Shown piece by piece: positions 1 to 12,655 of a DNA stretch of 64,000 nucleotides. The stretch is from assembly GCA_048887225.1 (NCBI GenBank), contig JBHLJY010000003.1, forward strand, positions 96,001 to 160,000, written 5' to 3'. The notes below the pieces were generated by a model. It was not told where the DNA came from, ran no database searches, and saw nothing but the letters and a program-made list of their open reading frames with translations. Source of the DNA: Candidatus Hodarchaeota archaeon. Its GTDB lineage: Archaea; Asgardarchaeota; Lokiarchaeia; Sigyniarchaeales; SOKP01. The first letter of the stretch is position 1, and each line of letters opens with the position of its first letter. A program made the translations under genes and the position numbers.

Positions 1-731
1 ATCTCTTTAAGTCCAATACAGTCTAATTGTTGCTTAAATTTTTTGAATGACTCGAAATTAACTACAATCATACCTAATTTTCTGGCAGGTACCAAGTTTT
101 GAATCTTATCATCGATATATATAACCTGTTTAGCTTTAGCATCTAATTTTTTCAAAACATATTTATATTTATCTATCTTAGGCTTGATAAGACCAATCTC
201 ATTCGAGAGAAACACGTAATCAAATGAATCATAAAATCCTCTTAATTCATTCGATTTAGCATATACATCATAAACGTTAGACATTAAGCTCACAGTATAT
301 CCAGCACTATGAAAAGTTTCAACAATATTCTTCATATCAGAGGATAATTTTGTTAATTTAGTATGTAATTCGAACCATAATTCTAGATAATAGTCCAAGT
401 TAACTTTTTTGGCTGGTAAGGCTCCATTATGTTTTTGATAAGGATAATAATATCTATCACTTATTTTTTCTAGAAATTCTCGTGAAGTTAATCGTCCAGA
501 GCTTAATTTTCGTTTAAGTTTTTTAATGTAAGGATTATCTATTCTAGGTATTTTAATCTTTAAATCGCTTTCAATACTATCTAGTAGATTCTTTAAAACG
601 AATGATCTCTCAGACATTACACCACCAAAATCAAATATTATATGCCTAATCTTATATAACTTAACTTTTTGGCGTCCAAACATTTTTGATGAAGAATTCT
701 TATAAGATTTATTGCTATTTTGAAGACTCAT
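1..731 (-). CDS. HAD-family phosphatase (IA/YihX-like), runs off the left edge; paralog of 752..1726
   Basis: Not in ORF track. Manual translation from ATG at 731: MSLQNSNK...IRHIIFDFGGVMSE...PAKKVNLDYYLELWF...SLMSN...SNEIGLIKP...YIDDKIQNL; HAD motifs I-IV present. Confidence 0.85.
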   Translation of the reverse strand, partial: MSLQNSNKSYKNSSSKMFGRQKVKLYKIRHIIFDFGGVMSERSFVLKNLLDSIESDLKIKIPRIDNPYIKKLKRKLSSGRLTSREFLEKISDRYYYPYQKHNGALPAKKVNLDYYLELWFELHTKLTKLSSDMKNIVETFHSAGYTVSLMSNVYDVYAKSNELRGFYDSFDYVFLSNEIGLIKPKIDKYKYVLKKLDAKAKQVIYIDDKIQNLVPARKLGMIVVNFESFKKFKQQLDCIGLKE

Positions 732-751
732 TCTCTTTATATAATAATTAC

Positions 752-1726
752 TCAATATATTTTAATTCTTGAAACTAATTCTTTCTTTTTCAATTTTGCT
801 TTTTTATATTCAGCTTTTTTAATCATATAATCTTCATATTTTATTTCAAGATTAGTTTTCTTTTTTGAGGAGTCCTTTTTATTTTTTAAATAGTAGTTTT
901 TTGCCTTCTTATATGCTCTTTTAGCCTTACGAAATTCTCTCTTTATTTCTTTATATAGTTTGTATTTGTTTTTAATTTCACGTCGAGATAACGAGCTTAT
1001 ATCTTTTATGCCAAGTTCTTTTAATTGCTCTTTAAATTTATCTATAGACTCAAATTTTAGGACATTCATACCCAATTGTTTAGCAGGAATGAGATTTTTG
1101 AGTTTATTGTCAATAAAAATGCAATATTTGGGTTTTGTTTTCAATTTTTTTATTACATATTTATATTTTTCTAAATCTGGTTTCCTAAATCCAATTTCGT
1201 TTGATAAAAAAATAAAATCAAATAAATTATAAAATCCTTTAAGCTTATTTGATTTTACATGAACATCAAAAGTATTTGACATTAAGCTAACCGTATATCC
1301 TGCTTTATGTAGTTTTAGGACAATTTCTTCCATGTCCATAGATAAATGGGAAAATTTAGAATATAATTGAAACCATAATTCTAAATAATAGTCCAAGTTA
1401 ACTTTTTTGGCTGGTAAGGGTCCATCATTTTTCTTATTTGGATAATAATATCTCTTAAGAACTTTCTCTATAAAATCACGTGATGTGATTATACCCGCGC
1501 CTAATTGCCTAAACAATTTTCTATAATAAGAATCTTCTGATCGAGGGATTATTATATTTAAATCGTTTTCTATTATATCAAATAGATTCTTAATACTATG
1601 AGTCGGTTTTATGAGTACACCTCCAAAATCAAAAATGAAGTGTTCAATTTCATATAATTTAACTTTTTGAAACCCGAATACTTTTCGAATAATATCTTCT
1701 TCTTGGTCTTGAAAGCTCATTATCAT
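752..1726 (-). CDS. HAD-family phosphatase with Lys-rich C-terminal tail
   Basis: FDFGGVL, MSNT, SNEIGFRKP, FIDNKLKNL motifs; last ~75 aa very K/R-rich. Confidence 0.85.
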   Translation of the reverse strand: MIMSFQDQEEDIIRKVFGFQKVKLYEIEHFIFDFGGVLIKPTHSIKNLFDIIENDLNIIIPRSEDSYYRKLFRQLGAGIITSRDFIEKVLKRYYYPNKKNDGPLPAKKVNLDYYLELWFQLYSKFSHLSMDMEEIVLKLHKAGYTVSLMSNTFDVHVKSNKLKGFYNLFDFIFLSNEIGFRKPDLEKYKYVIKKLKTKPKYCIFIDNKLKNLIPAKQLGMNVLKFESIDKFKEQLKELGIKDISSLSRREIKNKYKLYKEIKREFRKAKRAYKKAKNYYLKNKKDSSKKKTNLEIKYEDYMIKKAEYKKAKLKKKELVSRIKIY

Positions 1727-1759
1727 CTTAAACTAAATCAATTATTTAATAAATATATT

Positions 1760-2551
1760 TTAAATTTCCTTTTTTAATTTTTTAAACTCTCTCAAAATCA
1801 GATTCCCAATTTTAGAAACAGGATCTCCTCCACATTTCCAATTTGTAAACTCTGGAAATGATCCCGGATCAACAACAAACAATTTACCAGTATTTTTTTC
1901 TTTAACAATGTCTAAATGTCCGAATAATAGATTATAACTATTTTTCCATTTTAAAATAATTTCTAGGATATCATTAGGCGTATCTCTTTTTATCATATCA
2001 GAATGTTCATTTTTTAAAGGAAGTTTTTCTAAAGTACATATTTCATTATCAATAAAATAAACAGTATAATGTATGCCTTCAATAAATTTTTCTAAATATA
2101 AAATTTCATCTGAATTTGCTTCAAAATCTCTGAAGGTGTTTATAATTTTAACGCCTCTGCTTCCAGAACTCGTAATTGGCTTTAAAAGTAATGGAAAGTC
2201 GTTTTCTGTAAGATTTTTTATCAGAGCCTTTAATGCTCCGTAATAAATATGTGGATATAATAAACCGGCATTTTTTATTAGTAAATAAGCTTCTAATCTG
2301 TTTCTGTGTTTATAACTAATTTCTGGATTTGGTATAACTGGAATATTATTTGCCTCAATATAATATCCCGCATAGATAAAAGGTATTTGATGTTTAGATT
2401 TTAATATGTATAAATCATTCTCAAGTAATGACTCATCTATGCATAGATTTTCCTTTGTATAGATTTTAACACGATATCCTTTACTTTCATAAAATATTTT
2501 TAATTTCCCGGTAAAATATCCTGTTCTTTTAGATAATATTCCTATTTTCAT
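1760..2551 (-). CDS. ATP-grasp protein (RimK/ITPK1-like, divergent)
   Basis: FPLLLKPITSSGSRGV, LYLEKFIEG, GHLDIV...VVDPGSFPEF. Confidence 0.75.
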   Translation of the reverse strand: MKIGILSKRTGYFTGKLKIFYESKGYRVKIYTKENLCIDESLLENDLYILKSKHQIPFIYAGYYIEANNIPVIPNPEISYKHRNRLEAYLLIKNAGLLYPHIYYGALKALIKNLTENDFPLLLKPITSSGSRGVKIINTFRDFEANSDEILYLEKFIEGIHYTVYFIDNEICTLEKLPLKNEHSDMIKRDTPNDILEIILKWKNSYNLLFGHLDIVKEKNTGKLFVVDPGSFPEFTNWKCGGDPVSKIGNLILREFKKLKKEI

Positions 2552-2564
2552 GTTATAATTCTAT

Positions 2565-3392
2565 TTATTGTTTTTTAGCTTGTTCTATTAAAAATTCCGC
2601 AAATATTTTTGGTCCATTTTCAATATAATTAAAATTTGGCATGGAATTTATGTCTGTTAGATAATAAGTCCCATCTTTTGATTTTAAAAAGTCTAAAGAT
2701 GAAGCCTTAAGGTCTAGAATTTTTATTGCTTTTAATGCGATTTCTTTTAATTCAGAAATCTCTTGGATTTTTCTTCTGGTTTCCATTTTATCTGGGTTTA
2801 CTAAAAATGGAATTTGTTTATAGAAAAACAATTTATCTCCAAAACCATATATTTTATATTCCCACTTACTTTTAACGAATTTCTGGTAATAATAATATTG
2901 ATAATCCTCCTCTCCTCCATTAACTTCTTTAATTGCTCTCTCATCACTGATCTTTAGATGTCCATTTTCTTTTAAAATATTTGGCTTAAAAGTGTATGTT
3001 TTTTCGTCAACTATATTCTTTATAATATAATCTTTAAATGGGGCTTGACAAGTTGAGGGAAATAATGAAAAATCAGGTACACAGATACCAACTTTTCTTA
3101 ATAAAATACTATTTAAAAATCTATGTGATGCTAGCCAAATTGCTTTTGAAGGATTAATTACGGGGATTGAAGTTTCGTTTTCAATCATTCGAGCAAGAGA
3201 AACCAAAAATTTTCCTTTACCCTTAACAAAAAATAGATCTTCGTCAAATTCTAAATTTTTATTTTTAAGTAAGTAAGAATCTTCTACATATAGTTTTACA
3301 TTAGATTTAGATTTTAAATATTTTAATAAATCTGATATTTTATATTTCAAATGAAATTTATCAATAATGATTCCAATTTTTGGTTTTTTCAT
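2565..3392 (-). CDS. ATP-grasp protein, ITPK1-like
   Basis: YYQKFV..EYKIYGFG; SLDFL...YLTDINSMPNF. Confidence 0.75.
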   Translation of the reverse strand: MKKPKIGIIIDKFHLKYKISDLLKYLKSKSNVKLYVEDSYLLKNKNLEFDEDLFFVKGKGKFLVSLARMIENETSIPVINPSKAIWLASHRFLNSILLRKVGICVPDFSLFPSTCQAPFKDYIIKNIVDEKTYTFKPNILKENGHLKISDERAIKEVNGGEEDYQYYYYQKFVKSKWEYKIYGFGDKLFFYKQIPFLVNPDKMETRRKIQEISELKEIALKAIKILDLKASSLDFLKSKDGTYYLTDINSMPNFNYIENGPKIFAEFLIEQAKKQ

Positions 3393-3597
3393 AAATATCT
3401 AAATTATAATCTGATATTAAATACATGAGATTTATTCGATTTAAATGAATATATAATGATTTATATATTATAATTTAGATTAAAAAATTATTTAAGTAAA
3501 GCTGTTTGGCGATTCCCTATATAGATCCCATATATAAATAATAAATAGATTTATAAAGAATGTTTTTTATAAGAAACCAAACTGATGAGATTTTTTT

Positions 3598-4515
3598 ATG
3601 TCTAAAAAAATCATTGTTGGTTCGATCTGTAATCGAGATCTCGAAGTTTTTAACGAGATCAAGAGATTTTCTAAGATTCATTATAGAATAAAGTTTGTTA
3701 ATCTCATAAAAAACGATTCTTCTTTTTCTATCAAATATTTCAAAAAAAAATTGAAAAAATACAATATAGATTTCTTAATTGTTAAATTATATTCAGAGGA
3801 ATCAAATCATAAAGTATATGACGCAATTAAATCATATGCATCTAATATCCCCCGATTGAATAGTTTAAAATCTGTTCAAACATGCGAGAGCCGAAAGGAA
3901 ACATTTAAATTAGTAGAGGAAAAATGCAAAAAACTAAAGATTCCTAAATCTTTTTATTCAATAAACGCTGCGTTTGAAGCAGTATCGAATGGAACGCCTT
4001 TAATTATAAAATTAGATACACATAATATAAGAAATTTATCTAAATATGATCGAATTCTTGGTGTCGCGAAATCTAATGATGATTTCGTTAAGTTAATTAG
4101 AAAATATGATGTAGAGAATAACACTTTATTTTTCCAAGAATATTTAGGTAAACATGATGATATTTATAAAGTGTATGTAATTGATCGTTATGTACAAACA
4201 ATCACATCTCAAAATCTTTTATTACAACATAAGTTTTCCCCTTTAGAATTAGTACACCTTAGAGCACCGATAGAAAAAGAATTTAAAAGACAAATTTTAA
4301 GATTAGGGCGAAAATTTGGTATGACAATCTTCGGTGTTGATTATGTCTTAAAAGATGACATTCCCTATATAGTAGATATTAATGATTTTCCTAGTTTTAG
4401 ATATATCCCCGAGGCTATAAGCATGATATCTGATTATATATACAAGTTCTGTGTTGCGAGACAAACTCTTACTAAGATTCCAATGAGATTAAAAGTAAAA
4501 ACTTATACTATGTAA
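3598..4515 (+). CDS. ATP-grasp protein, ITPK1-like inositol phosphate kinase
   Basis: FFQEYLG..IYKVYVI; IFGVDYV...IVDINDFPSF matches the ITPK1 K-V-Y-V and D-I-N-x-F-P pattern. Confidence 0.75.
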   Translation: MSKKIIVGSICNRDLEVFNEIKRFSKIHYRIKFVNLIKNDSSFSIKYFKKKLKKYNIDFLIVKLYSEESNHKVYDAIKSYASNIPRLNSLKSVQTCESRKETFKLVEEKCKKLKIPKSFYSINAAFEAVSNGTPLIIKLDTHNIRNLSKYDRILGVAKSNDDFVKLIRKYDVENNTLFFQEYLGKHDDIYKVYVIDRYVQTITSQNLLLQHKFSPLELVHLRAPIEKEFKRQILRLGRKFGMTIFGVDYVLKDDIPYIVDINDFPSFRYIPEAISMISDYIYKFCVARQTLTKIPMRLKVKTYTM

Positions 4516-4542
4516 GAATAGCAATACAATTAAATTCTTATA

Positions 4543-5634
4543 TTATCGCGATCTTTTTCCTTGGATAAATCTTACAAGGCGTCGTTTCGCCCTAAAATCT
4601 TGGAGCTGTTTTGGAGGGTGTTTCATAAAAAAAGAACTTGCTGAATGTAATACGCCTCCAATCTGTCGATCTTTAGCTATTTTTGATATTCGAATGCAAT
4701 CTGCAATAATACCTGCTGAATTATTCCCGTCTTCAACAAACATGGTGATATCTACTCTGACAGGAGCGCCTCCAAAAATACGTCCTTCTAATCTCATATA
4801 TGCTTCTTTTTGATTTTTTAAGAATGGAATATAATCAACAGCAGAAATTTGACATTCAACAGTATCTTTATTTTGTAACTTAGCAACGACTGCCTCAGTT
4901 TTGGATTGGCGTTTTCCTTCTTCATAAATTAGCTCCCCGTTCGGTTTAGGTGTTAGAAGGTTCAAGAAATCGCTACATCCGCCCCAATCAAGCTGTATTG
5001 TTCTATCCAATATCGCTCCACGCATTGGAAAAAGATTTGCTAAAGCTCTATGAATAATTGTCGCACCAACCTGAGATTTCACATCGTCTCCAATTAAAGA
5101 AAGTCTTAATTCTTCTGCTTTTTGGACTATTTCTGGATCTTTCGCTACATTTGATGGTATTCCACACACAATACAGGCTCCTGCATCAAGAGCAGCCATT
5201 GCATAAAATTTCACAGCTCTATGGGCCCCAGTTGGTAGAAGAATTACAGCGACATCAACACTTCGTTCTCTTATTTCTCTAGCAATATCAGCTTCTTTTT
5301 GGTTATTATCAACAGGCACAATATTCTTTATGTTGCTATCCAAACCATCCATTATAGGACCTTTAATGACTGGAGCATTTAGAAAATCTGGACGATATAG
5401 TTCCATATTACAATTTGGTTCAGCAAATATGGCTTCACTAAGATCTTTTCCAACTTTGTTTGCGTTGACTTCTATGCCCAATACAAAACTTATATCATTG
5501 ATGCTATATTGTATTATTTCTGGTAGAATTCCTATAATTTTATCTGGATTTCTTTTATAGTTTTCGATTCCTTGGACAAGAGCAGATGCAACATCTCCAA
5601 TCCCTATCAGACAAACATTAATTTTATTTGTCAT
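4543..5634 (-). CDS. ino1: myo-inositol-1-phosphate synthase
   Basis: GIGDVASALVQG, GDDVKSQVGATIIHR, GGCSDFLNL, SKTEAV, NSAG, FFMKHPP. Confidence 0.9.
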   Translation of the reverse strand: MTNKINVCLIGIGDVASALVQGIENYKRNPDKIIGILPEIIQYSINDISFVLGIEVNANKVGKDLSEAIFAEPNCNMELYRPDFLNAPVIKGPIMDGLDSNIKNIVPVDNNQKEADIAREIRERSVDVAVILLPTGAHRAVKFYAMAALDAGACIVCGIPSNVAKDPEIVQKAEELRLSLIGDDVKSQVGATIIHRALANLFPMRGAILDRTIQLDWGGCSDFLNLLTPKPNGELIYEEGKRQSKTEAVVAKLQNKDTVECQISAVDYIPFLKNQKEAYMRLEGRIFGGAPVRVDITMFVEDGNNSAGIIADCIRISKIAKDRQIGGVLHSASSFFMKHPPKQLQDFRAKRRLVRFIQGKRSR

Positions 5635-5842
5635 GATAATGGGTATAATTAAATTATTATATTTAAATCATTACGAATAAGAATAAGATCTTTAAATCTT
5701 TCACAAAGTATCTTCAATTCTTTTTCCTTTAAATATGGTAAAAAATCATAATTCAATATGTATTAAATCGTAATCTATAAGTATAAAAAATTATAATTCA
5801 AGATAAGCAAACTATCAAACAATAAAAGACTGTTTTACTAAA

Positions 5843-7120
5843 ATGGAAAAAATAGAAAAATTACCTCGAAAAGTAAAGAGAACTGCCATCCTAGTAGGAA
5901 TCTTATTCGCTGGAGCGACTATATTCGGTTATTTCGAAGCCACTTTCTTCAATACTTACTTAGATCATCAATTAAATTTACCATATTATTACATCTCCAT
6001 AATGGTATCGTTATCAGCCACAATGGGATTAATAATGATGGTCGTTTGGGGAATAAAAAGTGACAATACGAGATCGAAATTTGGTAGACGAAGTCCATAC
6101 CTTCTATTGGGTTTTATAGCAGGATTTGCAATGATAGCTTTCGCTTTTGCTGAAGATTTTCTAATGTGTATAATTTTAGATGTGATTATTATTGGAATTG
6201 CGTCTAATGCATATTATGTAGCTCAAAGATCGTTTATTCCAGATTTAGTCGAATCTGAACATCGAGGGCGAGCTAATGGAATTACTAATGCTATAGGAAA
6301 TCTCGGATTATTAATTGCGATTGGTTTAACTTTAGTCGCAAATGAATTATTTACGGTTAAAAGAGGCACTGGAAACATTTTAACTCGCGAAGGTCATTTA
6401 TTTTTGTTCATTATGGGGGGTGGGGCAATTATACTATGTAGTATGATTGGTTTTATATTCATAAAAGAATTACCTCAATCGGAGTTGCCTCCAAAAAAAG
6501 CATTTATGCTTGAACTAAAAGAAATCTTTGATATTGAAGAATTCAGAAAACAAAACCAATTTTTTAGAATTGTTTTAGCAGAAACAATTTTTAGAGCACA
6601 TATCTATGTAGTATTACCATTTTTGTTTAGCTATTTATTCTCTTTAGCATTGACTACATTTGAGTTTATTTTAATCATTGCGGTGTCTACTCCGGTTATT
6701 GTTGTAGTAATGGTGATTTTAGGTAAAATGGCAGATAAATTTGGCCGAAAAACTTCATTAGCACCTGGAATCATTATTGCCAGTATAGGATTATTCATGA
6801 TGCCATTTGCTATATTCTTTCCTCAATATAAGATAATAATCTTACTTCTTGCATTTCCCTTGGTTTTAATCGGGCTTTTAGGGCTTGAAGTACCTCTTAA
6901 CGCTTGGTCCCAAGATCTTCTTCCAGAAGATAGAAGAGGTAAATTCTTGGGAATATTAAATGTAGTTAGAACAATATCACAAATTATAGGGGTAACCGTA
7001 GGAGGTATTGTTGCCACGATTTACGGTCTTGAATGGGTTTTTATTTTCGCTCCAATATTTCTAATTGGATCTATCTTCTTTTTCAGAAGAGTAAAAGAAA
7101 CACTAACATTTGAAGAATAA
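5843..7120 (+). CDS. MFS transporter (GPH/sugar-like)
   Basis: ~12 TM; SDNTRSKFGRRSPY and ADKFGRK MFS motif A. Confidence 0.9.
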   Translation: MEKIEKLPRKVKRTAILVGILFAGATIFGYFEATFFNTYLDHQLNLPYYYISIMVSLSATMGLIMMVVWGIKSDNTRSKFGRRSPYLLLGFIAGFAMIAFAFAEDFLMCIILDVIIIGIASNAYYVAQRSFIPDLVESEHRGRANGITNAIGNLGLLIAIGLTLVANELFTVKRGTGNILTREGHLFLFIMGGGAIILCSMIGFIFIKELPQSELPPKKAFMLELKEIFDIEEFRKQNQFFRIVLAETIFRAHIYVVLPFLFSYLFSLALTTFEFILIIAVSTPVIVVVMVILGKMADKFGRKTSLAPGIIIASIGLFMMPFAIFFPQYKIIILLLAFPLVLIGLLGLEVPLNAWSQDLLPEDRRGKFLGILNVVRTISQIIGVTVGGIVATIYGLEWVFIFAPIFLIGSIFFFRRVKETLTFEE

Positions 7121-7168
7121 CAAATATGATATTTTATTATTTATGCCTTAATTATGATTTTTTCATCT

Positions 7169-8878
7169 CTAAGATTTTTTCCATAATTTACGAAGCACAT
7201 GTGCTGCCATTTTTGGTCGGCGATCTCTTGTAAATACTCCTTTATAATTCAAACCTCCCGCCCTCAATATACCTTGTGCAGTTTTGAAATCACACAAGTT
7301 CCAGACATGTTGTCCTACAACATAATCTTTAGTATTTAAAAGCTCAATATATCTCCTTATGAATTCCATTTGATACTCTTCGCTAAACATTTCTGGAGGT
7401 TGAGCATGACATCCTGGAATGGTATCGGTTCCAAATTCAGATAAGATTATTGGTTTAGAGTATTTTTTATATAATTTGTCCAATTCTTCAGATAGTAATT
7501 CGATACCTTCTTCAATTCTTCCTGGTTGAGTATACCATCCATAATAACGATTTAAACAGATAATATCTAAGAATTTGAAAGTGTTTTCTCCTGTACCCAT
7601 CATATTAGCTATAGTAACTGGTCGAGTTGCATCTTTTTTCTTCGCAATTTCATATAATTTACGGAAAAAATCTCTTGCTCTAATACTCCTATGGGGTTCA
7701 TTAGCTAAACTCCACATTATTACGCTTGGATGATTTTTATCTCTTTCGATTAATTTTTGAATATATTGCTGGCATAATTCGAAATGACGATCAATAATTT
7801 TGAGATCAAATGTGAGCCCTACTGCTGGTGTTTCATCAATAACTAAAAAGCCTAGACGGTCAGCTAAGTCCATCATCTGTTCTGAATAAGGATAATGAGA
7901 TGTGCGAAAGGAATTGGCACCTATCCAACTTAATAAGGCGAAATCTTTAATCAAAATCACTGGAAAATAACCCTTTCCAATTATCGGAAAATCTTCATGA
8001 CGTCCAAATCCAGTCAATTTTATTGGTTTTCCATTTAGGAGTAATTGATTACCTTTAACTTCAATTGTTCGAATTCCTATTGATAAAGAGTACGAATCAA
8101 AAATAATGCCATCATGAGAGAGCTCTACAATCATATCGTATAAGTTTGGGGATTCTGGAGACCATAGTGCTGCATTATCCACTGATAAAGTGGTTTTTGC
8201 TAATTCTCCAGTAAGCGGAACTTCAGAAATAATATTTGCACTATGTCCGCTCAATTTAATCAATACATTTTCTCCATAGTTGCCAGTTCTCTGAATTTTA
8301 ATATTAATATATCCATTAGTACCTTCAATGGTAGTTATAACTGTCAGATCTTTAATCCCCTCTTTAGGCATTGTATAAATTAACACTGGGCGATGTATTC
8401 CACAGAAAGGAAAAAAATCAAAATTTGTATTAGGATAATTTAAAGGTCTACCACTAGGAGGAACATGTTCTTTGGCTAAATTCCCATCCACTCGCACAAT
8501 TAATCGATTTTTTTCTGTTTTTATTAAAGATGTAATATCATATTCGAAAGGCAAGTGGCCACCTTCGTGCTGACCAAGATTTTCACCATTTAACCAAACA
8601 TTTGCCACGTAGTTGACAGAGCCAAATCTCAAAAATATACGATGATTTTCCCAACTCCACGGCAGATTAAAAAAAGTCTGGTACCATGCGGGACCTAAAA
8701 AATCACGATTACCAGCGAATTGTTCGTTCCAACTAGCTGGTACTGCTATTGGGTGAGCATCATTAAGACCATTTTGCCAATTATTTATCAGACCTTCATC
8801 ATTAAAATCAAAACGAAAATCCCACAAACCAGATAAATCAATGCATTGGCGATATTTATTTATTTGAGGATAAAGCAT
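7169..8878 (-). CDS. uidA: beta-glucuronidase (GH2)
   Basis: GANSFRTSHYPY, WSLANEP, LNRYYGWY, SEFG, NYKGVFTRDRRPK (GUS N-x-K motif). Confidence 0.9.
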   Translation of the reverse strand: MLYPQINKYRQCIDLSGLWDFRFDFNDEGLINNWQNGLNDAHPIAVPASWNEQFAGNRDFLGPAWYQTFFNLPWSWENHRIFLRFGSVNYVANVWLNGENLGQHEGGHLPFEYDITSLIKTEKNRLIVRVDGNLAKEHVPPSGRPLNYPNTNFDFFPFCGIHRPVLIYTMPKEGIKDLTVITTIEGTNGYINIKIQRTGNYGENVLIKLSGHSANIISEVPLTGELAKTTLSVDNAALWSPESPNLYDMIVELSHDGIIFDSYSLSIGIRTIEVKGNQLLLNGKPIKLTGFGRHEDFPIIGKGYFPVILIKDFALLSWIGANSFRTSHYPYSEQMMDLADRLGFLVIDETPAVGLTFDLKIIDRHFELCQQYIQKLIERDKNHPSVIMWSLANEPHRSIRARDFFRKLYEIAKKKDATRPVTIANMMGTGENTFKFLDIICLNRYYGWYTQPGRIEEGIELLSEELDKLYKKYSKPIILSEFGTDTIPGCHAQPPEMFSEEYQMEFIRRYIELLNTKDYVVGQHVWNLCDFKTAQGILRAGGLNYKGVFTRDRRPKMAAHVLRKLWKKS

Positions 8879-8957
8879 ATTATTAAATATTAATAAAAGT
8901 TTTTATGCTTTTTTAGAATTTGAATAATTAAATAAAACGGCTTTAATCAGAGTTTAT

Positions 8958-10106
8958 ATGAATAGTAGAGAGAGAGTAAAAAAGGCGTTCCATTTCGATA
9001 AACCCGATAGAGTACCTATGTCTCAAATGAACTTAAAAACAGATTTTTTTCCAGTCCATCAATATCATCCTAAATCTTGGCAACCACAAAATTATCCTCC
9101 TCACGTAAGAGGGGGTGTTGAAAAAATAACTAAAATAACTTATAGAAAATTCGTATATAATTGGAAAAATACAATGAGAAAAGAAGCAGGATATTCTAAG
9201 AAGTGGTGGAAAAATCCTCATGAGAGTATTGATGAATGGAATACTATTTGGAAATCTTCAGGAACAGAAAGTGCTGATGTAACAAAAGGTCATCCCTTTA
9301 AAGGTTTTCTTCAAGATGATTGGGATAAAATTAATGATTACAAAATCCCTGACGCATCAAATCCGGAGCGATATAGGATGATAAAAACAAAAATATGGAA
9401 ATTATTAGGTAAGAATAGATATACGGTTGGCGAAATGGGAGCTAATGGTCTATTCAATCAATGTAGTCAAATTAGGGGTTTTACTAATCTTCTTATTGAC
9501 TTTGCTAGACATTCACAAGAAGTAGATCAATTAATCAATAAAATACTTCCTTTTTACCTGATTCAAATTGAAAAATTTAAAGGATATTATCCAACACTAG
9601 ATTCAATTATTATCGCAGATGATTTAGGAACTCAAAAATCGCCGTTCATCAGCCCAAGAATTTTTCAAAAATTTTTTAAAGAACCTTATAAAGAAATCAT
9701 AGATTTAACTCATGAATTAGGAATGGATTTTATTCTACATTCTTGCGGCCAAATTTTCGAATTAATGCCAGATATAATTGATATTAATGTTGACGTGTTT
9801 GAATTTGACAGCCCCCATATGACTGGAGTCGAAAATTTTAAAAAATTTGCAAAGGAACGAAAGGTGGCATTCTGGCTTTCATCAAATATTCAGAGTACAT
9901 ATCCTCTTGGAACACCTGAAGAAGTAGAAGAAGAAATAAAACATTACATTAAAGAAGTGGGTAATAATGAAGGAGGATTAGCTATTTATGAATATATGTC
10001 AAATAAGGTTTTAAGGACACCAAAAGGAAATATTATATCACAAAGAGAAGCTACTCTTAAATGGGGTAATTACAATGAAAATGGTTTTATTGATTGGTTA
10101 GCTTAG
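8958..10106 (+). CDS. uroporphyrinogen decarboxylase / MtaA-CmuA methyltransferase family protein
   Basis: MNSRERV start, ADDLGTQ..PFISP, ILHSCG, GTPEEV. Confidence 0.8.
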   Translation: MNSRERVKKAFHFDKPDRVPMSQMNLKTDFFPVHQYHPKSWQPQNYPPHVRGGVEKITKITYRKFVYNWKNTMRKEAGYSKKWWKNPHESIDEWNTIWKSSGTESADVTKGHPFKGFLQDDWDKINDYKIPDASNPERYRMIKTKIWKLLGKNRYTVGEMGANGLFNQCSQIRGFTNLLIDFARHSQEVDQLINKILPFYLIQIEKFKGYYPTLDSIIIADDLGTQKSPFISPRIFQKFFKEPYKEIIDLTHELGMDFILHSCGQIFELMPDIIDINVDVFEFDSPHMTGVENFKKFAKERKVAFWLSSNIQSTYPLGTPEEVEEEIKHYIKEVGNNEGGLAIYEYMSNKVLRTPKGNIISQREATLKWGNYNENGFIDWLA

Positions 10107-10159
10107 AATCGTTATTCTATCAAAACCTTAAGAAGTTAAATAATATTTTATTCCTTAAT

Positions 10160-11050
10160 ATGGCAAAAAAAATAGTTCTTTCCGCCAAAAAAGAACATGA
10201 TGTTATTATAAATGTTATAAAGAAGCTAAAAGAAATCCAAAATATTGATTTAATTTTACATGATCCAACTGAAGATTTTCTTAACTTAGAAGATATGCAT
10301 AATCAATTTGGAGATGCTGATTTTATAATAGCAAAAGTCGCAAGCGATTGTTCTATTGATTTACTCCATTTTGCTAAACTTTACAAAATTCCTACATTGC
10401 ATGATATTGACACAGTTCTAATGTGTAAAAATAGAGTTGCTCTTGACCATGTTTTAAGAAGAATTTTTAATAAATATTCGAAAGAGTTAGATAAATTTTT
10501 ATTACCAAAATCTTGGACGCATTCCTTATTAAATATAAATAGATTTAAGGAATGGGCTTCTTCACGATTGCCAATAGTTATTAAAAGTCATTATCAACAC
10601 GATAAATACAATCGATTTAATTTCTTGGTTCGGGAAATAGAAGAAGTTAATAAATTTTGTAAATTATATTCAAATTTTTTATACTATGATGTATATATTC
10701 AAGAATTTGTGGAATGTGATGGAATAGAGCTAAAAGTATATGTGGTTGGAGATAAAGTATTTGGAATTAAAAGAGAAAATCCAATTTACATTTTTTTAAG
10801 AGATAAACTCATTTCTATTGATGTTGAGACTATAGAAAGAGTCAAATTTAAAGTCCCAGATGATATGAAAAATTTAGCTAAAGTTCTTGCAAAAGAACTA
10901 AATTTAAAACTATTTGGGTTTGATTTAGTTAAACCTCTTAATCAAGAGGGATATTTTCTAATTGATTTAAACGATTTTCCTGGTTTTAGGGGTATTAACA
11001 ATATTGATAAAGTAATAGCTGACTTTATTAAAAAATATTTAAATCGATGA
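10160..11050 (+). CDS. ATP-grasp protein, ITPK1-like inositol phosphate kinase
   Basis: YIQEFVECDGIELKVYVVGDKV; LFGFDLV...LIDLNDFPGF. ATG at 10160 preferred over the overlapping TTG at 10094. Confidence 0.8.
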   Translation: MAKKIVLSAKKEHDVIINVIKKLKEIQNIDLILHDPTEDFLNLEDMHNQFGDADFIIAKVASDCSIDLLHFAKLYKIPTLHDIDTVLMCKNRVALDHVLRRIFNKYSKELDKFLLPKSWTHSLLNINRFKEWASSRLPIVIKSHYQHDKYNRFNFLVREIEEVNKFCKLYSNFLYYDVYIQEFVECDGIELKVYVVGDKVFGIKRENPIYIFLRDKLISIDVETIERVKFKVPDDMKNLAKVLAKELNLKLFGFDLVKPLNQEGYFLIDLNDFPGFRGINNIDKVIADFIKKYLNR

Positions 11051-11149: not shown

Positions 11150-12655
11150 ATGTCTCAAAGTGAAGTTTTATTAGATTGGACTTCTCCCCTACAATCGCCT
11201 CCACTTTTTAATTACCTTCGACAAGAAATACCGATTGAAGATCTTCGTGATTATGCTAGTCCTAGAAGGATTAAATCGATAGATTTCGTAAAGGGCTTAG
11301 CAATAATTTTAATTATGATGGCGCACATATCCGAAGCATGGTTAGATTCAGATTGGGTATATATTTACGCAATGATTTTTTGTATAATGGATGTCTTTGG
11401 TCCATCATTATTTATCTTCCTTTCAGCACTCAGCGTAGTTTTTAGTATAAAAAAAAAACAAGGAAAAGTCCACCCTAAAATTATTAGAAACCAAATTCTT
11501 TCGCGTGGAGCGTCAATCGCAGTAATTGGAATGATAATAAATCTAGCATGGTTAAATCAAGGACCTACAGATTATCGCCCAATATTTCCTCTAAGTTTAT
11601 GGGGTTGGAATATTCTTATGTTTTTAGGCTTTTCTCAAGTATTTTCATATTATGCATTAAAATTAACTAAAAAATGGCGGATCATTATCGGCTTAATAAT
11701 TATCTTTATTTCTATGCCCCTTAGACAATTTCTTATATATTACAGAGAAGATTATTTAATGGTTTGGATATTACATTTCATTATAACTTCGCCTGCTCCT
11801 CAATTGCCGCTTTTTCCTTGGCTTTCAATATGTTTTTTATCTACAATATTCGGTGAATATCTGTACGAGGCAATGATTGAAGGAACTGAAGATGCTTATG
11901 TAGGACTCATTCGGATTTTTCTATTCTGGGGGGTAATATTTATAATTTTTGGAGTTATTGCTCCCTCTATAAATTTGGGATTACCCCCTAAAATATCTTG
12001 GGGATGGGAACTACAAACCACCGAAACGATGAATATGAATGAATATCCCCATTTATACGTCTTGGGTATTATGAACCAGCAAAAATATTATAAATTTCAT
12101 GGAATTCCTCTATTTTTAATAAGGAGTACAACAGCAAATATGATTTATAATTTAGGCGCAGCTCTGTTAATCATTGGAATTTTCTTCTATATTATTGATT
12201 TAAAGAAGAAAGAAAATAATTTTACCTCAATGTTAATATATTACGGAAAAGTGTCGTTAAGTCTATTTCTCATACATTTTATTTTTATTCTGATTTTCGT
12301 TAGTCAATTTAGTATAGTAGTATTTCCGTTTGTTATTCTCGCTTATGTGGGATTAATGGGCTTTTCTATGTATATATGGAATGAGTATGGTAATGGGGTA
12401 GGTTCTCCAGAATGGGTGATGATACAAATCAGCAGAATCGGTCAAAAGACAGGAGAACAAGTCAAAAGAGAACTTAGAAAAACGGAGGATTTAATTAAAA
12501 ACTTTACAAAAATGATAATGCCTAAAAAGACTTTACAAAAGATGGAGGACTTTATAGCGGAGAGAAAAGAAAAGAGATTAGAAAAAATAAGGAAACAAGA
12601 ATTAAGAAAAAAGAGAAAAAAGCTTGAAGATAGAGTTGGTCATATAGAAGATTAA
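11150..12655 (+). CDS. DUF1624/HGSNAT-like membrane acyltransferase-family protein
   Basis: RRIKSIDFVKGLAIILIMMAH, LFIFLSALS, PLFPWL; ~10-11 TM; basic C-tail. Confidence 0.7.
   Translation: MSQSEVLLDWTSPLQSPPLFNYLRQEIPIEDLRDYASPRRIKSIDFVKGLAIILIMMAHISEAWLDSDWVYIYAMIFCIMDVFGPSLFIFLSALSVVFSIKKKQGKVHPKIIRNQILSRGASIAVIGMIINLAWLNQGPTDYRPIFPLSLWGWNILMFLGFSQVFSYYALKLTKKWRIIIGLIIIFISMPLRQFLIYYREDYLMVWILHFIITSPAPQLPLFPWLSICFLSTIFGEYLYEAMIEGTEDAYVGLIRIFLFWGVIFIIFGVIAPSINLGLPPKISWGWELQTTETMNMNEYPHLYVLGIMNQQKYYKFHGIPLFLIRSTTANMIYNLGAALLIIGIFFYIIDLKKKENNFTSMLIYYGKVSLSLFLIHFIFILIFVSQFSIVVFPFVILAYVGLMGFSMYIWNEYGNGVGSPEWVMIQISRIGQKTGEQVKRELRKTEDLIKNFTKMIMPKKTLQKMEDFIAERKEKRLEKIRKQELRKKRKKLEDRVGHIED

Follow-up and report, generated by a model that had tools for sequence, protein, structure and literature searches.

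The first 11,050 positions of the analysed stretch (the window: 64,000 nucleotides, C3:96001-160000, from a genome of 3.27 Mb and 98% completeness whose proteins match Promethearchaeota (Lokiarchaeia) records) carry a gene of the myo-inositol-phosphate synthase (MIPS) family among four paralogous ATP-grasp genes, named here by their first positions (1760, 2565, 3598 and 10160), and two tandem HAD phosphatase genes. The locus probably encodes a lipid-independent, soluble inositol-phosphate route, orthologous to the LcIK/IPS genes of Lokiarchaeum and comprising three likely catalytic kinases, not four; judging from the sequences, we put the probability of this reading at roughly 0.6. A preliminary description of this DNA had proposed a clustered pathway from glucose-6-phosphate through inositol 3-phosphate (Ins3P) to higher inositol phosphates (InsPs), with four kinases, dedicated erasers and a code. 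The pathway remains the likeliest reading and its linkage proved conserved, whereas the four kinases, the erasers and the code were not supported.

In the proposed scheme, a dedicated extra synthase, apart from the other MIPS genes of the genome, would convert glucose-6-phosphate into Ins3P or a close cyclitol phosphate, which 10160 and 3598 would phosphorylate from ATP in the manner of ITPK1. Proteins 2565 and 1760 would act as a heterodimer with its active site in 2565, 1760 being a non-catalytic or regulatory subunit, and the HAD protein would serve as an optional phosphatase for sugar or cyclitol phosphate. A metabolic role of the product, as phosphate store, chelator or solute, is more likely than one in a signalling code.

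Organisation of the locus

The open reading frame coordinates previously assigned to the MIPS, the four ATP-grasp genes and the two tandem HAD genes were all confirmed:

1-755, minus strand: HAD phosphatase, copy 1, of the YihX/sEH-N type, with D-x-G as motif I and a Lys-rich helix at the C-terminus; accessory part
752-1726, minus strand: HAD phosphatase, copy 2, sharing 58% identity with copy 1; accessory part
1760-2551, minus strand: degenerate ATP-grasp protein 1760, with D-P-G replacing D-x-N and the catalytic Lys gone; predicted partner of 2565
2565-3392, minus strand: ATP-grasp protein 2565, with the kinase-type signature K57, K125, K180-x-Y, D234, D247-x-N249
3598-4515, plus strand: probable ITPK1-like ATP-grasp kinase 3598, part of the mobile core
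4543-5634, minus strand: variant MIPS (most likely), of a separate clade, with the Lys/Asp core retained
10160-11050, plus strand: ITPK1-like ATP-grasp kinase 10160, the clearest of the four; resident gene in the Loki family

HAD copy 1 extends 250 bases beyond the left edge of the window, its full length being 334 amino acids. The minus-strand genes 2565, 1760 and the two HADs lie close together, the first two gaps measuring 13 and 33 bases and the HADs overlapping by 4, and for this reason are probably read as a single transcript. Gene 3598 diverges from this run, MIPS converges on 3598, and 10160 sits 4.5 kb past MIPS, beyond genes for an MFS transporter, a GH2 enzyme and a URO-D-like protein.

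Relation to described systems

The core of the cluster, of which the preliminary description had wrongly stated that no account existed, was published in 2019: the available portions of Desfougeres et al. (2019; PMC6900528) describe four Lokiarchaeum ITPK1 homologues flanking inositol-phosphate synthase (IPS) genes. According to the same portions, LcIKC partly restores IP6 in plc1-null yeast, the single published case of inositol-phosphate kinase activity among these proteins. As at the present locus, the Lokiarchaeum homologues (LcIKA-LcIKD) flank IPS and the same route from Ins3P was proposed, but they form two pairs around two IPS genes, whereas here four distinct paralogues surround one; the available text is silent on the changes in MIPS and 1760, on the HAD and on carriers beyond the Asgards (PMC6900528). 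In a Loki's Castle metagenome, HAD-1760-2565-3598-MIPS-10160 occur in the same order, with proteins 58-77% identical to those of the window. The 10160 orthologue there is LCGC14_1122880, LCGC14 presumably denoting Loki's Castle core GC14. Mapping LcIKC by its Arg156 was tried and rejected, the Loki's Castle orthologues having Arg152 and Arg153, and no LcIKA-LcIKD assignment was made. In a 2026 preprint, Asgard sequences form the sister group of eukaryotic ITPK1. Within a partial coverage of the literature, the only later work found on Asgard inositol kinases consisted of papers citing the 2019 study, and no description was found of the altered synthase, the predicted heterodimer or the Thermoplasmatota copies treated below.

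Conservation and distribution of the block

Linkage was assessed in 75 loci chosen by a 3598 orthologue, from related and thus non-independent genomes. MIPS accompanied 3598 in 68 of 69 testable loci, a conservation of ino1 linkage far beyond chance, 2565 in 71/71, 1760 in 69/70 and HAD in 50/64; 10160 was present in 51 of the 75, directly beside MIPS in 17. Such counts alone prove little, given that the genomes are related and that synteny extends to unrelated flanking genes. An FKBP gene adjoins or lies near 10160 in several genera of the same family (genomes 94-100% complete), in which no orthologues of 1760, 3598, HAD or the clustered MIPS clade were found. The stretch between FKBP and 10160 either contains HAD-1760-2565-3598-MIPS as a whole or lacks it as a whole. 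Since FKBP-10160 is kept in genera lacking the rest, 10160 is a resident gene and the remaining block was gained or lost as a unit.

The 10160 profile matched 58 of 61 genomes of this Loki family and, weakly, 5 of 190 other Asgards; for the 1760 profile the figures were 98/128 and, again weakly, 1/251. Three single-contig genomes of the sister family (G030, G034, G037) yielded no match. Among the Asgard genomes searched with these queries, clear orthologues are thus essentially limited to one family. Outside it, the module recurs in a lineage of 46-51% GC whose ribosomal proteins group with records bearing the name Thermoplasmatota; there, amid different neighbours (L182, L196, L202-L204), MIPS-1760-2565 lies opposite 3598 and a TIM-barrel gene. 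Two high-GC contigs with 1760 orthologues named Promethearchaeota have only 2565-1760 facing MIPS (L199, L200). In both settings the MIPS that accompanies the module always belongs to the clustered clade (support 100). The one Thermoplasmatota carrier genome tested yielded no 10160 orthologue, and the carriers no HAD orthologue. The steadiest partners of the clustered MIPS are 2565 and 1760, the two least ITPK1-like genes. With orthologues in one Loki family and hardly in other Asgards, and a four-gene version in Thermoplasmatota, the distribution agrees with a module of patchy occurrence, spread by transfer, no less well than with an ancestral trait, which tempers any eukaryogenesis story.

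The TIM-barrel gene following the 3598 orthologue (L182:10854-11642, L196:6117-6905, L202:5966-6727) is of AP_endonuc_2 type with weak epimerase matches, and could encode a cyclitol isomerase or epimerase. One of the high-GC Promethearchaeota contigs carries a major vault protein gene (L200:16353-17972) about 5.5 kb from the module. A contig labelled Nanopelagicaceae (L161) bears the Loki locus with archaeal flanks; it is most likely misbinned or mislabelled and not a bacterial copy.

The four ATP-grasp proteins

The four paralogues are mutually 23-32% identical. K-(V/I)-Y and D-(I/L)-N-x-(F/M)-P, reported earlier for three of them, were recovered as described, both motifs being invariant across orthologues. 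The accompanying label of four ITPK1-like kinases applies clearly to 10160 and probably to 3598, and fails for 2565, which is a separate family, and for 1760, which has neither motif.

Profile and motif evidence identifies 10160 as ITPK1-like. It alone among the four exceeds the PF05770 cut-off (53.6 bits against 23), ITPK structures come first in its profile search (2e-12, versus 3e-4 for RimK), and K192, R205, D255, D269 and N271, in columns matched to ITPK1 by that search, are invariant in 20/20 members; only 10160 retains the Arg of the R212 column. A search for fused or longer 10160 forms (549-2000 amino acids) found none, which is weak evidence. Its closest paralogue, 3598, is probably ITPK1-like: the protein itself falls under the PF05770 cut-off of 23 (20.8 bits), PF05770 is matched by 13/13 orthologues (best 1e-8), its profile search is headed by ten ITPK chains (1e-6), and K191, D248, D260 and N262 are invariant, with Ser/Ala in the R212 column. 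Eukaryotic ITPK1 (PF05770; PDB 2QB5, 8OXE, 7TN5, 1Z2N), which shares the ATP-grasp fold, K-x-Y and D-x-N-x-x-P, provides the best structural relatives of 10160 and 3598 by profile, at a low and mostly C-terminal similarity, whereas 2565 and 1760 fail PF05770.

Protein 2565 represents its own family, neither RimK nor ITPK1 proper. It has no match to PF05770, to which its orthologues match weakly in 12/21 cases (best 1e-3), and its profile search ranks ArgX first (4e-4), ahead of EhITPK1 (0.13). K180, D234, D247 and N249 are present in 21/21 members, a search of 1.8 billion proteins gave nearest relatives exclusively of the K/D-x-N type, and Foldseek with the 2565 model lists the Vip1 and PPIP5K2 kinases at ranks 2 and 5. 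Protein 1760 is probably non-catalytic or chemically altered, with Leu/Ile/Asn/Thr in the Lys column of K199 and D-x-G for D-x-N in 11/11 aligned members; it retains a RimK-like Gly-rich loop.

K-x-Y and D-x-N are invariant in 10160, 3598 and 2565, and Arg stands at that Lys column in 44 of 47 E-x-N relatives. All four families also have Lys at a column holding Arg in 33/47 RimK-type proteins, which we take to be that of ITPK1 K59. Arg in the central strand or E-x-N was found in 0 of the 66 aligned members of the four families, unlike RimK/LysX/ArgX (PF08443; PDB 3VPB, 5K2M, 4IWX), compact and oligomeric enzymes that use Arg and E-x-N and are the best fold match of the 1760 and 2565 models. 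The phylogenetic comparison with RimK separated them likewise, since in a careful tree none of the four nests in the sampled RimK/E-x-N clade (99/99 branch), which includes the RimK-like gene of this genome itself (on C18, apart from the locus). There 1760 groups weakly with 2565 (81/65); a FastTree run placed it on the RimK side.

Compact ATP-grasps with K-x-Y and D-x-N (P0126-P0270) form a broad, mostly unannotated prokaryotic group beyond the Asgards, and many may be mislabelled as RimK-type ligases.

The 2565-1760 pair

Complex prediction for 2565 with 1760 gave 0.89, the best of 3 controls reaching 0.01. In calibration, 58 of 80 solved pairs and 2 of 110 mismatched ones attained this mark, counts that hold only roughly, the complex having been predicted from our own alignments. 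Contacts agreed between runs at a level of at least 95%, the partner's predicted local distance difference test (pLDDT) score was at least 89, and the modelled interface is pseudo-symmetric. Taken with the close coupling of the genes and the catalytic residues lost from 1760, the complex prediction, which supports binding, makes a heterodimer of one active and one inactive subunit the simplest reading, and it suggests that 2565 and 1760 are better expressed together. The pair is found without MIPS nearby in L206 and L208. A 1760 homologue with 44% identity lies at L201:9001-9786, without 2565, amid pterin and F420 biosynthesis genes.

The clustered synthase

The clustered synthase is most likely still a MIPS by its residues and matches. 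It matches PF01658 (3.5e-21) and TIGR03450 (3.4e-85), the latter with 286 bits against a cut-off of 638, and its best match is Mycobacterium tuberculosis Ino1 (5e-79 against 3e-41, full length). Aligned to 1GR0, K241, K245, K276, D222 and D302 are the equivalents of yeast K369, K373, K412, D356 and D438, residues reported to contact substrate and NADH, and are kept. Actinobacterial-type MIPS (M. tuberculosis Ino1, PDB 1GR0; TIGR03450) thus shares the catalytic Lys/Asp residues, but the clustered sequences form a separate clade (21/21; support 100, stem 0.73), apart from canonical archaeal copies, and have an Asn pair of the active-site loop changed. In yeast the conserved residues listed for the catalytic domain include N350 and N354; the corresponding pair is Asp and Cys/Ser/Asp/Gly in 21/21 clustered proteins and Asn in 18/18 canonical paralogues. 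Two further conserved positions are altered in all 21. This genome also has a canonical MIPS, on C2, and in two others (G270, G272; of unstated completeness) the variant is the sole MIPS found. The product may have changed, for which 6K96 offers a precedent.

On C2, two tandem MIPS-family genes occur (L070:8539-10747; G000:C2:264541-266746), one canonical and one strongly diverged; the latter lacks the Lys of the G-D-D-x-K-S-Q motif and is present in at least five Loki genomes. The tandem pair adjoins genes for an NTP-transferase and a CDP-glycerol glycerophosphotransferase, and in G001 both lie directly beside the clustered MIPS.

The HAD phosphatases

Both HADs are of the YihX/sEH-N type, with D33, S150, K182 and D206 (motifs I-IV) invariant in 16/16 members and a best PDB match of 5e-14. 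They share D-x-G motif I, the Ser, Lys-Pro and the acidic motif IV with YihX and the N-terminal domain of soluble epoxide hydrolase, and differ in an extra long, Lys-rich C-terminal helix, the tail being very basic (30-32 K+R within the last 80 amino acids). They were found only in block-bearing genomes of the Loki family, which hints at a link with the block; no orthologue was found in G024 or the Thermoplasmatota carriers. The HAD gene stands next to the cluster in 50 of 64 loci, as a single gene in 48 and doubled in 2, the doubling being seen only in this genus, and lies away from the cluster in four genomes. Because it is present in 50/64 loci and doubled in only 2, the notions of dedicated erasers and of a code are unsupported.

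In L043, L055 and L069 the off-cluster HAD has a second conserved neighbourhood, adjoining a radical SAM/SPASM gene and one for a membrane protein of GtrA-like type. A separate canonical gene of the inositol monophosphatase family is located on C5. The HAD-like domain of plant ITPK4 is fused to the kinase, but is capless and no activity was found for it (PMC7614388); as a Rosetta stone for the present HADs it was rejected as support, being absent among the 60 matches listed for the HAD profile.

Weighing the alternatives

Several observations weigh against the soluble inositol-phosphate route. The active-site residues of the clustered synthase are altered. Fold searches favour LysX/ArgX for the 1760 model (Z 25.3, root-mean-square deviation 2.5, 252 aligned) and the 2565 model (Z 23.2, 3.0, 254 aligned), human ITPK1 scoring lower (Z 19.4 and 18.6, respectively); these ranks were not used for functional assignment because the comparison had no 10160 control model. 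The careful tree contains unnamed library proteins, with long branches and no identified eukaryotic ITPK1, and a topology with 1760 as sister of the RimK side could not be rejected (p-AU 0.33). ATP-grasps of the K/D-x-N type make up a wide group in prokaryotes and are often encoded far from MIPS, which lay near none of the four distant 2565 relatives whose context was inspected. The score of the 2565-1760 dimer may derive from likeness to solved LysX/RimK homo-oligomers, and each of the two occurs once without the other (L216 and L201, respectively).

If 2565 and 1760 were instead a RimK-like ligase dimer acylating a MIPS-derived cyclitol into a solute or envelope building block, with 3598 and 10160 as the only kinases, this would accord with LysX/ArgX/RimK at the top of the fold searches, the Gly-rich loop of 1760, the dimer itself (a RimK-like feature, ITPK1 being a monomer) and the minimal unit 2565-1760-MIPS without an ITPK1-like gene nearby in L199 and L200. 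We rate it very unlikely, as the Lys and Asp of 2565 take the place of the Arg and Glu of ligases (21/21 members), its nearest relatives are all K/D-x-N, and Vip1 and PPIP5K2 rank second and fifth in Foldseek. It is quite unlikely that the product of the variant synthase is a cyclitol phosphate different from myo-Ins3P, or its substrate another sugar phosphate, and that the ATP-grasps build a phosphorylated non-myo cyclitol: the retention of every substrate- and NADH-contacting residue, the best match to M. tuberculosis Ino1, the variant as sole MIPS found in G270 and G272 and the action of a Loki homologue on myo-inositol phosphates in yeast (PMC6900528, available portions) stand against the changed Asn pair and two more positions in all 21 clustered MIPS, the canonical MIPS elsewhere in the genome, the AP_endonuc_2-type TIM-barrel gene after 3598 in Thermoplasmatota, and 6K96, a MIPS homologue with another product (a five-membered-cyclitol-phosphate synthase).

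The most doubtful of the functional proposals is the earlier one of four position-specialised InsP kinases and two dedicated phosphatases forming a prokaryotic inositol-phosphate code. Four long-diverged paralogues do stay side by side in about 70 loci, and the basic-tailed HAD, beside the cluster in most of them, is restricted within the family to cluster-bearing genomes; however, 1760 is degenerate, lacking the metal-binding Asn and catalytic Lys in 11/11 members, the HAD is mostly single (48/50) and neither G024 nor the Thermoplasmatota carriers yielded one, a search of this 98%-complete genome for an IPK-family kinase (PF03770) found none, and no receptor or effector was identified. Adjacency merely through slow change of gene order in the Loki family is hardly credible: unrelated flanks (radical SAM, FKBP, LMW-PTP, isochorismatase) are equally syntenic, but several genera with near-complete genomes lack the whole block, and in another phylum it reappears between other flanks, with MIPS in another orientation. 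This largely refutes the explanation for MIPS, 1760, 2565 and 3598; for HAD and 10160 it may still hold. Possible, though unlikely, is a mobile module, common to Loki archaea and Thermoplasmatota, whose re-tooled synthase and 2565-1760 kinase/pseudokinase heterodimer, helped by 3598, make a phosphorylated cyclitol outside the known eukaryotic inositol phosphates; if true, soluble cyclitol-polyphosphate chemistry would be neither Asgard-specific nor simply a matter of ITPK1. The locus names a full enzyme set for reconstitution.

Variable cargo and flanking genes

Between MIPS and 10160 lie about 4.3 kb of variable cargo (5843-10106):

5843-7120, plus strand: MFS transporter, in 28/75 loci
7169-8878, minus strand: GH2 beta-glucuronidase, in 3/75 loci; outside the system
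8958-10106, plus strand: URO-D/MtaA-like protein, in 1/75 loci; outside the system

BacA, LMW-PTP and MFS were considered as pathway members and rejected, as they also flank 10160 in block-less genomes and BacA is missing here. Just past 10160, at window positions 11150-12655, lies a gene for an HGSNAT-like acyltransferase, in a place occupied by BacA in 40 of 46 loci of relatives. The commonest cargo between MIPS and 10160 (15/75 loci; L039:3387-6215 and orthologues) is a protein of about 940 amino acids without a Pfam or NCBIfam match, often accompanied by a Zn-dependent polyol dehydrogenase and an MFS transporter.

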